A DNA stretch of 64,000 bases, from contig CM000152.2 of the NCBI GenBank assembly GCA_000004695.1, positions 64,001 to 128,000 on the forward strand, read 5' to 3'. The first letter of the stretch is position 1. Each line of letters starts with the position of its first letter. The position numbers were made by a program, and so were the translations under genes. Source of the DNA: Dictyostelium discoideum. Its lineage: Eukaryota. Of this stretch, positions 55,614 through 61,060 are shown one piece after another. Under the pieces are notes generated by a model, which made no database searches, was not told where the DNA came from, and saw nothing but the letters and a program-made list of their open reading frames with translations.

Positions 55614-58566
55614 ATGAATGAAATTATAGTGGGAGAATATAAAATTCATAGTTTATTAAAAAGCTTTGCTGATAAGGATGAAGAAAGAAATGTTTATATC
55701 GTTTTAAATAAATCAAATGAAAAGGTAATATATTGTTAATCAATATAAATATATACAAAGTTTTAATTATTCTGATTTCAATATACATATTTTTATAGTT
55801 TATTTGTAAAGAAATTATATATACTCAAAATTCAAATATAGATAATGAAAAAAGGAAATCAGAATATATTAATTTAAAAAAATTTTCCGATACCATTAAA
55901 TATCCACATTTAAATATTTCAAAATATATTGAACATTTTATAATTTTAGAAAATCAACAAGAGAAAGAAAAAATTAAAAAGCAATATATTATTACTGAAT
56001 TTTATGATGGTGGTGATTTATCTTCTCTAAAAATGTAATTATAAATTAATAAATAATAATAAAAGTTAAAAATAGTACTAATAAAAAATGTTTTAGTATT
56101 AAAAATGGTGATATAATTTATTTGTTTTTAAAAATGTTAATCATTTTTAAAGAATTTCAAACTGTTATTATTCACAGAGACATCAAGCCTGGTAAGTGTG
56201 ATATTTTTTTTTTTTTGAAAATTACTACTCATGTGCTTGTGTGTGTGTTTTGTGGCCTATACAATAATCTAACAAAATGTTTACAACTACATATGTGGAA
56301 TAGATAACATTTTAATCAAATCAGTAAAATTAAAAGATGGTTCAATTGTAAATGATTATTATTTATGTGATTTAGGAAGTTCAACACAGGTTAAAACTAT
56401 TAATAGTTCAACATTGATTGGTACAAATCAATATATTGCTCCTGTAAGTAAAACACAACATTATATAAATTATAACATTTTAATAGTATATTATTGAAAA
56501 CTAATATATAATTATATATTTTATTGGGGGTGGGGTTATTCAGGACGTTATAAAAAGAGGTGGATATACAGGAACCATTGATATCTATGGATTAGGTAAA
56601 ACTTTACTACTATTATTAAATAGGGTTCAACAAAATCAATATAATAAAATAAATAAAATTTTATTTGAAATGATGTGTTCAAATGAATCAACAGAAAGAC
56701 CAACCGTTGATCAATTAATTGAATTTATGGTATGTCAGTATGATAATATTTCATTTACAGAGTTTGATGATTTCACTCATCCACTTTCAAAAGATTGTAT
56801 TGAATATTTTAAAAATAATAAATTAAATATACTCAAAAAAGATGTAAAACCAATTCAAATTAAAATCAAAATTAAAGAAAAAGAATACCGAGCATATGGT
56901 GCAATTCAGGCATTACTTAGAAACTTTTATTATATTGATAACGTTATTAGTATTGAAGATAATAATAATAATAATAATAATAATAATAATAATAATAATA
57001 ATAATAATAATAATAATAATAATAATAATAATAATAATAATAATAATAATAATAATAATAGTGATGGTCCCATTGAGGTTGCTGAATTTGAATGGAATGA
57101 AAATACTGATAGGCTCGCATCAGAGTTATTATTAGGCCATTTTAAAACAGAAACTGGTGGTAAAAATTATGAAATTGCCAATAGTCATATAGAATTTGTG
57201 TTAAAATCAGAAGTTTTAAAGTCATTATCTTATCATGATGAAATAGTTATTGATAGACAAGCAACTCCTATATATGATAATTTTATAAATTCAGATGATA
57301 GTCAAGCACAAATTCCACCCACATCCACAAAATGTATCCACATTTTTTCAAATCATAAATATAATTTTCAAAAATTTATCAGAGATTTACCTTATGGTGA
57401 ATTAACAGGCGATGTTCAATTAAAAGCAATATTTCATTTAATTTTAGTCATATTTGAAATTGCTGAAAATGGTCCAGATTTCATGTACAATGCATTATTA
57501 GAAAAGAATATGGGCACCCTTTTTATTATACCACCATCATCAGAAACTACACCAAGACCACCAACACCAACTGCAACAACAACACCAACACCAACAGCAA
57601 CAACACCAACAACAACAACAGCAACAACAACAAAATTATCACAACATAATTTTAAATTTTTATTTCCTTTTAGGTCTTATGCATTTAGCCATTCATCAAA
57701 TACTAAATTACATATTTTTTTAAACATTTTTGGAGATCACACTAAGGATGGCTTGATAGTAGATATTTTAAAATTAGCAAAAGTAAGTGGTAGTATAAGA
57801 CATACTTAAATTTAAATACTAAACAAATACCAAATAATATTAATTAATAAATAAATCAATAAATTATAGGAATTAGATAAAACAAAATTACCAACAGTTG
57901 ATATTATTTTACAATTAATTAAAATGATTCAAAAAGAAAAATGTAAATTATTGGAAACTTATTCAAATTCAGGATTAGATTTTTATTTTAATAATTTTGA
58001 AACTTTAATATTTAATTATGAATTAAAAGAATCTTTAACAAAACTTATTGATAAAAATAAAATAATTCATTGTGTTGATAGTTTAAATCAAATTCTTACC
58101 ACAAGATATTTTTATTTTGTTGAAAATCATTATAAGGTATGCAAAAAAAAAAAAATTTAATTGTTTTTTTTTAATTTTTCATTCATTTAACTAATTATCT
58201 TATTTTTTTAATAATTAGTGTTATGCAATTGAACCATATAAGAGTTTAGAGCTTATTTCAAGTTTTAATGAAAATAAGAATATATATATTAGAAAACTCT
58301 TACATTATTCTTCATTTCCATCAATGAAAAGATTTAAATATATTCAAACTTATTATGACAAAGTTAATAATTCTCATTACTTTGTATTCGAAATTCCAAA
58401 AAAATTATTAAATACAACTAAAAAAATGGAACTCACTAAACAATCATCATCTACAACAACAAAAATTGATAGAATGAAAATTTTTAAAAACTTAATTGTC
58501 CAACATTTGAATAATATTCAAGAATTGAAAACACATCTTAAATCGATATATGAATGTTTGTATTGA
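55614..58566 (+). CDS. Divergent Ser/Thr protein kinase with long C-terminal extension, ~812 aa; exons 55614..55724, 55799..56034, 56097..56191, 56304..56443, 56544..57782, 57870..58136, 58219..58566
   Basis: The kinase core is spread over exons 1-5 (…YIITEFYDGGDLSSLK | …TVIIHRDIKP|DNILIKSVKLKDG…CDLGSS…IGTNQYIAP | DVIKRGGYTGTIDIYGLGKTLLLLL…). It has HRDIKPDN catalytic loop, a DLG variant of DFG, and an APD/APE-like segment. Exon 5 contains a 37-Asn tract encoded by (AAT)n 56951..57060 and a Thr/Pro-rich linker. Donors are GTAATA, GTAATT, GTAAGT, GTAAGT, GTAAGT and GTATGC, and phases are consistent. The ORF ends at a TGA (58564-58566) that is immediately followed by 88 further in-frame sense codons. 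Confidence 0.55.
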
Positions 58567-58658
58567 TATTGTTATTATAAGATTAAAAATTCAATTTTAA
58601 ATTACTTTAAATTATTAATACCACTACATTATAAACATTCTCACACATATTATATAGA

Positions 58659-61060
58659 TAGTTTTAATTTAGTAATATCTCTAGAAGATGATAATAAATT
58701 TGAATTATATTATTCAAATTCAGTTTCACCATTTTCAAGTGACGGATTTATTAGATCATTCTATGATATTGGTAAATGGGTATTTGGAAATTTAAATAAT
58801 CAAGAAGAAGAAGGTGATCAACTAGTGAAAATGAAAAGTTATTTTTCATTTTTAAGAATTTTAAGTGAATTAAGTTGGTTTTGTAATATTTTAGGTAGTG
58901 GTAATGTTCACAATTCAATTGTTTATAATGAATTAAATATTTATTATTATTTAAAAATGCTTTTACCATTATTGAATGATATTAAAATTAATGTTTTTCA
59001 TTATCAAATCCAAAATGATATATTTGCAAAAATTATCATTGGAAATACTCAATACAATATTATTAATTTAATTGAACCAAATCATATTGATGATCCATTT
59101 TCAATGGTTCAATATCATTTATATATTATGGAACTTGAAAAAATTGAAACAAGTGATGTATGTATATTACTTATTTATTTTTTATTTAATTATTTAAATA
59201 TTATATTAACATTGCCTGATATCAATTGTACATATATAGAAATTCACATGTTTAAGAAAGCAATTTAATCAAAGACCACAAAAACAATCAAAGATATTTG
59301 AAATTCCAAATCCTAATAATTCAATCGATGAAATATTAATTGAACCAACATTAATTGTTCAAGATATAAATACATCATTTCAATTTTTTAAAGTAAATGG
59401 TATAATTAAAACAATTGAAGATTTTAATCAAGAAAAAGAGTGAGTATTTGATTTGTACCATAAATTTTATTTTAAATCATTATTAATTATTAATTTTTAT
59501 TATTTTTTCTAAAAAAAAAAACAGTTATAGTAATATTATTATTTTAAGATCATTTTTATATTTCTTGCAATACCTTTTCAAGAATCCATCAAAAACAACA
59601 TTATTAGTTTTATTTGATATTAGGAAAATTGATTTTGATAATATTAATTCTTCAAACGATATTGATAATGAAAGCATACCTCAATATTTATGTTTTGATT
59701 TCTTATATTTTATCAAACAAATGTATGGAATTGATATATATTTCCAATTTGTAAGTATTTATAAAACTTTTATTAAGATCAATAATTTTTTAAATATTAT
59801 TTATTGTATTATTTATTAATTTTTTTAATTTTTAAAAAAAAAAAAAAGGAAGATTTTTTGGAAATAATATCAACTAGACCATCAATAGTATCAAATATCA
59901 TTCAATCAAATAAAAAAAAGATATTAAATGATATTATTTGCATGGATATTATTGAAAATGATATATCAATGAAAGATGTATTTTATTTACTTTCTGTTGA
60001 TATTATAAAAACAATTTCACCAACAGTAAATTTAGTTATTTATGATAAAAGAGTAATGTATTATTATTATTGTTTTTTATAATGATTTAAATTAACAAAA
60101 TTTTTAACAATCAATTTTATTATTATTATAGTACTATATTCAAAAAGAAGTTGGATCAATTTCAAAAATTAGAGAATGGAAAAAGTTTGGAATTATATCT
60201 TCACATCCAGATGCAGTGGTTTTTTTAAAATATGGTAAAAAAGATTTAAAATCAGCAATGTTGGATAATGGTAAAGTGAATGATGAAAATTATTATGGTA
60301 TTGCTGTTGAGGATTATATGAAATCTAATGAATTAAATATACTCTATTATTTATTGAGTAAACAAGAAGAACCAGATTTCACCAATATTGAAAGATATTA
60401 TTTGGAAAATGATAAAATCTATGCAATGTTTCCATATGTCAATGGTAGTTGCAATTTATCTGAAATTGATAATTTAAATGAAATGGATTTACTCAACATA
60501 TTATATCAACTTTGTTTTCAATTACATCAATTGGAAAATCTTGGTATATTTCATAGAGATGTTAAACCTGAAAATATAATTTCTCTAAGATATGGAAATG
60601 GTGGAATCGTGGTATTTATAGTTGATTTCGGTATATCACAATACAAAGGAAAACATTTAGAAAATTATTATTCACGTGATGGTACATTTGGATATCAAGC
60701 TCCAGTAAGTATTTAAATACTATATTTATCTTAAATAGTTTAAACTAATTCACATTTTTAATTTTAACATTAAAAGGAAATTTATAGAGAAGAGTTGAGA
60801 GGTGATGGTGATATTAAAACTCAAAAATATAAAATGGATGTTTTCAGTTTAGGTTGCACTATGGCTTTTTTAATTAAAAAGTTTAATATTACATCAACAT
60901 ACTTAAACGATTTCATTGATAATATGACACAACCTCATGTATGTAAATCATTTAAAAAATAAACTGAAAAAAAAAAAAAAAAAAACTAATATTTTTTTAG
61001 TATAACGATCGTTTTAGTATAGACCAATGTTTAGAAATAATAAAAAGTTGGAAAAAATGA
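58659..61060 (+). CDS. Second kinase unit with C-terminal canonical kinase domain; exons ~58659(or ATG 58831)..59157, 59240..59439, 59525..59750, 59849..60052, 60132..60704, 60777..60938, 61001..61060
   Basis: The kinase domain spans exons 5-7 (…LCFQLHQLENLGIFHRDVKPENIISLRYGNGGIVVFIVDFGISQYKGKHLENYYSRDGTFGYQAP | EIYREELRGDGDIKTQKYKMDVFSLGCTMAFLI… | YNDRFSIDQCLEIIKSWKK*). It has HRDVKPEN, DFG and APE motifs. Donors are GTATGT, GTGAGT, GTAAGT, GTAATG, GTAAGT and GTATGT, and acceptors are all AT-rich ...ag. Whether this is a separate gene starting at ATG 58831 or the 3' half of the 55614 gene is unresolved. Confidence 0.5.

Follow-up and report, generated by a model that had tools for sequence, protein, structure and literature searches.

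Dual-domain kinase gene DDB0230037 of Dictyostelium discoideum: an in-frame TGA very probably located in an ordinary intron

The Dictyostelium kinome includes nine proteins with dual eukaryotic protein kinase (ePK) domains (Goldberg et al., 2006, "The Dictyostelium Kinome", PLoS Genet 2:e38; PMC1420674). The same study describes a Dictyostelium-specific group of three proteins, Other/Dicty9, in which each protein contains two Dicty9 domains that arose via tandem duplication; Figure S3 and Table S2 of that study list them as DDB0231281, DDB0219988 (= DDB_G0293292), and DDB0230037. The last of these is marked "dual-domain" and carries neither a pseudogene nor an edited-model flag. Here we describe the gene at positions 55614-61060 of a 64,000-nucleotide (nt) stretch of D. 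discoideum DNA (CM000152.2, positions 64,001 to 128,000; hereafter the window), where an earlier note had seen two kinase units separated by an in-frame TGA and had suggested a single tandem-kinase gene. This gene is already known, as the dual-domain kinase DDB0230037 of the 2006 catalogue. In our analysis, the stretch 55614-61060 is very probably one gene of AX4-type D. discoideum with 14 exons, a product of ~1449 amino acids (aa), and the TGA inside the ordinary intron 7. The TGA at 58564-58566 would then be the first in-frame stop within a spliceosomal phase-1 intron and not the end of the gene, and the product would consist of an N-terminal ePK domain with a DLG variant motif, an ~870-aa linker in which no domain is recognisable, and a second ePK domain at the C-terminus. 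The comparisons below include two orthologous loci, L001 (GCA_054859355.1) and L003 (GCA_054859385.1), which are both labelled "Dictyostelium discoideum" and have ~90% DNA identity to the window.

Gene model and the published kinase DDB0230037

The window is very AT-rich and contains poly-Asn tracts and short AT-rich introns, as is typical for Dictyostelium. The hand-built gene model comprises the following parts.

55614..61060, + strand: complete gene, 14 exons, 13 GT..AG introns, 1449-aa product (hand-built model, ortholog annotations, Table S2 match)
55614-55724, 55799-56034, 56097-56191, 56304-56443, 56544-57782, 57870-58136, 58219-58555, + strand: exons 1-7
58658-59157, 59240-59439, 59525-59750, 59849-60052, 60132-60704, 60777-60938, 61001-61060, + strand: exons 8-14

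Once the 13 GT..AG introns are removed, one uninterrupted frame runs across all 14 exons, from the start ATG at 55614 to the terminal TGA at 61058-61060. The introns have lengths of 62-112 nt and an AT content of 71-93%, and the exons are 73-84% AT. The earlier note had expected a dual kinase of ~1500 aa; the two kinase domains in one frame were recovered by Pfam as well as by the hand-built model, and the length had to be corrected to 1449 aa. Exact look-ups of the fused 1449-aa, the N-only 811-aa, and the C-only 583-aa products in the protein collection gave no match, and the gene was identified by way of the literature.

The sequence of DDB0230037 in Table S2 matches the window product apart from the choice of acceptors at introns 2 and 3. 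The two are the same gene, with two ePK domains and the motifs FICK/VFLK, DLG/DFG, and HRDVKPEN. At intron 2, the 2006 model uses an upstream acceptor (~56075), which adds the 7 aa TNKKCFS, and at intron 3 it uses a downstream acceptor, which removes 11 aa. Domain a of DDB0230037 begins at residue 27, and Figure S1 has DDB0230037b begin at residue 1187 with EVGSISK (PMC1420674); in our 1449-aa model EVGSISK begins at residue 1191. This offset of four residues at domain b results from the +7 and -11 aa at introns 2 and 3, and as it is thereby fully explained, both models must take the same 34 codons out of the junction.

The choice of the intron 3 acceptor also bears on the catalytic loop of domain a. 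In the 2006 model this loop reads HRDIKPDG and was noted as "lacks N171" (PMC1420674). With the acceptor AG at 56302-56303, the region becomes HRDIKPDNILIKSVKLKDG (window 56192-56340), in agreement with the ortholog annotations, and the catalytic loop of the Dicty9 paralog DDB_G0293292 reads HRDIKPENIFF. The missing catalytic Asn of domain a thus looks like a gene-model artefact of the intron 3 acceptor choice. With the resulting HRDIKPDN loop, activity of the N-terminal domain becomes slightly more likely.

In the intergenic DNA on both flanks, the AT content is 89-92% and the frequency of stops 0.09-0.10 per codon, much as the earlier note had stated (more than 85% AT and a stop about every 10 codons). 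On either side of the kinase gene, this DNA contains (TAAA)n microsatellites (~55455-55550 and ~61185-61240), which are accompanied by long A and T homopolymer runs. About 520 nt beyond the end of the kinase gene, an electron-transfer flavoprotein (ETF) beta-subunit gene starts at 61579 on the + strand; its synteny extends to L001 and L003, and its assignment is based on the Pfam ETF match in the orthologous loci.

The in-frame TGA and the open stretch behind it

Downstream of the TGA, the same frame is free of stops from 58567 to 59265. Counting the frame gave exactly the 88 sense codons between the TGA and the ATG at 58831 that had first drawn attention to the locus, and no in-frame ATG lies between them. 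The two features that account for this stretch are given here.

58556..58657, + strand: intron 7, 102 nt, phase 1, GTTTGT...TATAG, 83% AT; holds the TGA 58564-58566; Tyr codon split T/AT
58658..58830, + strand: first 58 codons of exon 8, coding, preceding the first in-frame ATG (58831); 76% AT, paralog alignment

The earlier note had proposed a phase-1 intron that removes the TGA. Its phase and the spliced junction, which reads KSIYE/Y/SFNLVISLEDD, were correct; the borders were not, as the donor GTTTGT lies at 58556-58561 instead of 58568 and the acceptor AG at 58656-58657, so that exon 8 starts at 58658. With these boundaries, the open frame is restored, and intron 7 lies within the size and AT norms of the other 12 introns of the gene.

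The 88 open codons consist of two parts of different nature, namely 30 intronic codons (58567-58656) and 58 codons of exon 8 (58658-58830), and the view that the open stretch reflects coding continuity holds for the second part only. The 58 exon-8 codons before the ATG 58831 have 76% AT like the other exons, and they align with the paralog protein (FIRSFYDIGKWVFGN versus LVQSFFDIGAWVYGD). The lack of stops in the 30 intronic codons, on the other hand, is expected by chance with p~0.05 (shuffle 0.056; (1-0.094)^30 = 0.052), and 2 of the 12 other introns of the gene are likewise without an in-frame stop when read through. The frame looks continuous into exon 8 because intron 7, with its 102 nt, is a multiple of three and contains no further in-frame stop. 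In AT-rich genomes, an intron with a length divisible by three may stay open by chance and thereby mimic a stop followed by a continuing open reading frame (ORF).

As a stop at 58564 and an ATG at 58831 both exist and the GTTTGT donor is weak, it was in principle conceivable that a recent fission has produced two separate genes, with the N-terminal kinase ending at TGA 58566 and the C-terminal kinase starting at ATG 58831. The 58 exon-8 codons speak against this alternative: they are exon-like, homologous to the paralog, and conserved, and two separate genes would leave them without a start codon. As they have no in-frame ATG of their own, they can be expressed only when joined to exon 7. Moreover, the gap between stop and ATG is just 264 nt and lacks the AT-rich, homopolymer-rich DNA that is seen in the flanks of the gene; a single gene is what the ortholog annotations, that of a near-identical assembly, and the curation of 2006 all show; and the position of the junction intron is common to the paralog. 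We therefore regard a fission, which had been among the alternatives of the earlier note, as extremely unlikely.

The junction in orthologs and in the paralog

The comparison with orthologous loci that had been suggested for this junction gave a uniform picture. Both L001 and L003 are syntenic with the window and are annotated as single genes at this position. The homology search identified the fused ortholog P0001 (1421 aa, 92% identity, 100% coverage) and its cluster mate P0006 (1429 aa), and both contain KSIYEYSFNL. When mapped onto the DNA of their loci, P0001 and P0006 reproduced all 14 exons and all intron phases of the window model. The divergence of L001 and L003 from the AX4-type window, with only ~90% DNA identity at the kinase locus and a proportion of synonymous differences (pS) of ~0.09, is larger than we would expect within one species.

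L001 and L003 both retain the TGA together with the GTTTGT donor. In L001, intron 7 has 102 nt and 4 in-frame stops, and in L003 it has 97 nt, which shifts the frame, and 3 in-frame stops. The identity of intron 7 to the orthologs is 88-89% with many gaps, and the exons remain in frame. As stops and indels that are not multiples of three are tolerated, intron 7 of the orthologs evolves as non-coding DNA. The 3-4 in-frame stops of the ortholog introns also indicate that the stop-free state of the 30 intronic codons is peculiar to the strain of the window.

These comparisons also bear on the question of whether the TGA is read through or intron 7 is retained. Three genomes share the unusually weak GTTTGT donor, and intron 7 of the window has a length divisible by three and a single stop. 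This intron might be a regulated retention point that gives rise to two forms, namely the complete tandem kinase and one of 811 aa with the N-terminal kinase only, ending at the TGA; in AX4-type strains, rare readthrough of the TGA could in addition produce a full-length form with a 34-aa insertion. However, neither the length divisible by three nor the single stop is conserved, as the intron has 97 nt or multiple stops in the orthologs, and there is hence no sign of selection for readthrough. In addition, the open state is expected by chance with the probability given above, and two other introns of the gene are stop-free. Regulated retention and the additional isoforms are thus very unlikely, and plain stop-codon readthrough, which the earlier note had listed, finds no support in ortholog introns that contain several stops and in one case are 97 nt long.

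A further genome assembly, GCA_054883475.1, contains 21 kb that are 99.5% identical to the window, and a 286-aa ORF of the window occurs there exactly, on a chromosome of 6.43 Mb. Between 55560 and 59978, the only difference consists of 3 nt in intron 3. Its annotation shows one gene from the equivalent of 55614 that spans the TGA and extends beyond 59978, with a product of 1431 aa, which is 18 aa shorter than the 1449-aa model. The difference in intron 3 is located just upstream of the acceptor (56295-56298), where the window has GTGG and GCA_054883475.1 has ATTT; it could be an error of the reference or a strain polymorphism.

An error of sequencing or assembly at the TGA was a prior possibility without other points in its favor. 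This TGA recurs in GCA_054883475.1, an independent and near-identical assembly, as well as in the two divergent genomes, and with three other assemblies in agreement, an error of this kind has a practically negligible probability.

The paralog DDB_G0293292 (DDB0219988, UniProt Q54C38) was found by the homology search as a full-length homolog (E = 1e-145). Like the window gene, it encodes a kinase, a long linker, and a second kinase in one polypeptide, which has 1371 aa and is 32-33% identical to the window product over 65-72% of the length. It differs from the window gene in its locus and in having 12 exons, i.e., two introns fewer, and from the window product in its motifs DMG/DFS and in the lack of a poly-Asn tract. 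A "cf. discoideum" genome (L006, GCA_054859235.1) contains an ortholog of DDB_G0293292 whose protein, judged by eye, is visibly diverged from the AX4 version. In the alignment with this copy, 11 of the 11 paralog introns match window introns in column and phase, including the intron at the junction. For the AX4-type paralog, we determined the junction by tblastn and direct reading of the DNA. It reads GAA T/GTAAGT...AAAG/AT CAA, and the intron is thus in phase 1 and splits the same Tyr codon as T/AT. Across the junction, TEYQYNIIIS of DDB_G0293292 aligns with YEYSFNLVIS of the window, and the paralog has no residues that match the 34 codons of intron 7. As an intron is present at the same codon and in the same phase in the paralog, intron 7 predates the duplication that gave rise to the paralogs. 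As both paralogs share the junction intron, the dual-kinase arrangement is ancestral and not the result of a fusion or fission at this locus. Together with the fused annotations of the two orthologs and of the near-identical assembly, and with DDB0230037, these data bear out the suggestion of a single tandem-kinase gene.

Both sides of the junction are under purifying selection. The ratios of nonsynonymous to synonymous differences (pN/pS) versus both orthologs were 0.22-0.31 for domain a, 0.34-0.40 and 0.20-0.22 for the first and the second part of the linker, respectively, and 0.25-0.28 for domain b, and thus 0.2-0.4 throughout. These values are relevant for the possibility that the locus is a pseudogene in which the TGA is a nonsense mutation of a former coding sequence, hidden by an invented intron. 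Stops masked in this way by "bogus" introns of automated models were described for 15 Dictyostelium kinase loci in the kinome paper (PMC1420674), and its warning on invented introns, as well as the length of intron 7 that is a multiple of three, would fit such a scenario. Against it stands the pN/pS of 0.2-0.4 to the left and right of the junction. In addition, a genuine intron occupies this codon and phase in the paralog, which has no residues for the 34 intronic codons, the ortholog introns have accumulated several stops and indels that are not multiples of three while all exons stay open, and Goldberg et al. inspected the gene without flagging it as a pseudogene. We consequently give the pseudogene hardly any credence.

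Several aspects weigh against the single gene with intron 7 as described here. The donor GTTTGT is the sole one among the 13 donors with a T at position +3 and hence a weaker one than the usual GTAAGT/GTATGT. The TGA could also be excised by another in-frame pair, 58560/58661, with ...ECFFNL as the result. The comparison of the 58 exon-8 codons with the orthologs gave 5-7 nonsynonymous and 0 synonymous differences, a sample too small to deduce constraint. The window's own annotated protein was not among the homology-search matches or the exact look-ups in the protein collection. Finally, the splicing of intron 7 in vivo is something that we infer from the sequence comparisons, and the protein search yielded no fragment derived from a spliced transcript. 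As to the exact borders, other in-frame GT..AG pairs such as 58560/58661 and 58498/58581 were considered and rejected, since 58556/58657 fits both the way in which the orthologs are annotated and the Tyr codon that is split in the paralog.

Kinase domains, linker, and other dual-domain kinases

The kinase domains and their motifs, as well as a poly-Asn tract in the linker, are located as follows.

55692..56741, + strand: kinase domain a, N-terminal, ~residues 27-260, cut by introns 1-4 (Pfam, PDB matches, motifs)
55799-55810, + strand: FICK Lys of domain a
56173-56308, + strand: HRDIKPDN of domain a, split by intron 3
within 56366-56380, + strand: DLG in place of DFG, domain a
within 56432-56546, + strand: APD of domain a
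56961..57059, + strand: poly-Asn tract, pure (AAT)33 inside exon 5
60135..61054, + strand: kinase domain b, C-terminal, ~residues 1187-1448, cut by introns 12 and 13 (Pfam, PDB matches, Figure S1)
60219-60230, + strand: VFLK of domain b
60552-60575, + strand: HRDVKPEN of domain b
within 60621-60635, + strand: DFG of domain b
within 60696-60779, + strand: APE of domain b, split by intron 12

Pfam assigned Pkinase to residues 27-236 and a second Pkinase / PK_Tyr_Ser-Thr stretch to ~1277-1406. Both domains match solved kinase structures in the PDB with E ~1e-9 to 1e-11, without pointing to a specific family. The motifs agree with what had been reported from the first reading of the DNA, namely an atypical N-terminal domain, for which we find HRDIKPDN/DLG/APD, and a canonical C-terminal set of HRDVKPEN/DFG/APE. 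The alignment of the Lys in VFLK of domain b is questionable, domain a has no Gly-rich loop, and a clear GxGxxG is present in neither domain. Goldberg et al. rated both domains of DDB0230037 as "partial kd, activity questionable" (PMC1420674). The protein may act as a tandem kinase. Domains a and b are 30% identical to each other in BLASTP (E = 2e-7), and hhalign related them with a probability of 99.2%. As they belong to the same class and are mutually related, their origin lies in an internal duplication.

Between the two kinase domains lies the ~870-aa linker (56742-60134, ~residues 290-1185), which is conserved in the Dicty9 paralog. The linker gave no Pfam match at E<=10 and no significant PDB match. 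An AlphaFold2 prediction of the ortholog linker, based on an alignment of three sequences, reached a mean predicted local distance difference test (pLDDT) score of 40.4 and a predicted template modelling (pTM) score of 0.26, which was too poor for a fold search. The sequences YFVFE, NLVIS, and DIGKWVFG in the linker resemble kinase subdomains by eye only. We also considered whether the linker conceals a third (pseudo)kinase domain across the junction and dismissed this idea as unsupported, as Pfam and PDB gave no match there and hhalign against the protein's own kinase domains remained below 1%. The pure (AAT)33 tract in exon 5 corresponds to NN in P0001 and to an interrupted run of ~13 residues in P0006, despite the ~90% identity of these orthologs to the window. 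As the length of the tract thus differs between orthologs, a recent expansion or contraction must have occurred.

With respect to the gene as such, the outcome matters little, since the raw sequence alone recovers a structure that was curated in 2006 and that is repeated in the recent annotations of related genomes. In the literature on DDB_G0293292, DDB0230037, and Dicty9, we found only the kinome paper of 2006. Two ePK domains in one polypeptide are likewise present in JAK, RSK, GCN2/IfkA, and the Dictyostelium proteins ZakA and DPYK3/4. Unlike these, the Dicty9 proteins result from an internal duplication and not from the fusion of kinase domains of different classes, and they further differ from other dual-domain kinases in their restriction to Dictyostelium and in the ~870-aa linker without a known domain that separates their two kinase domains.

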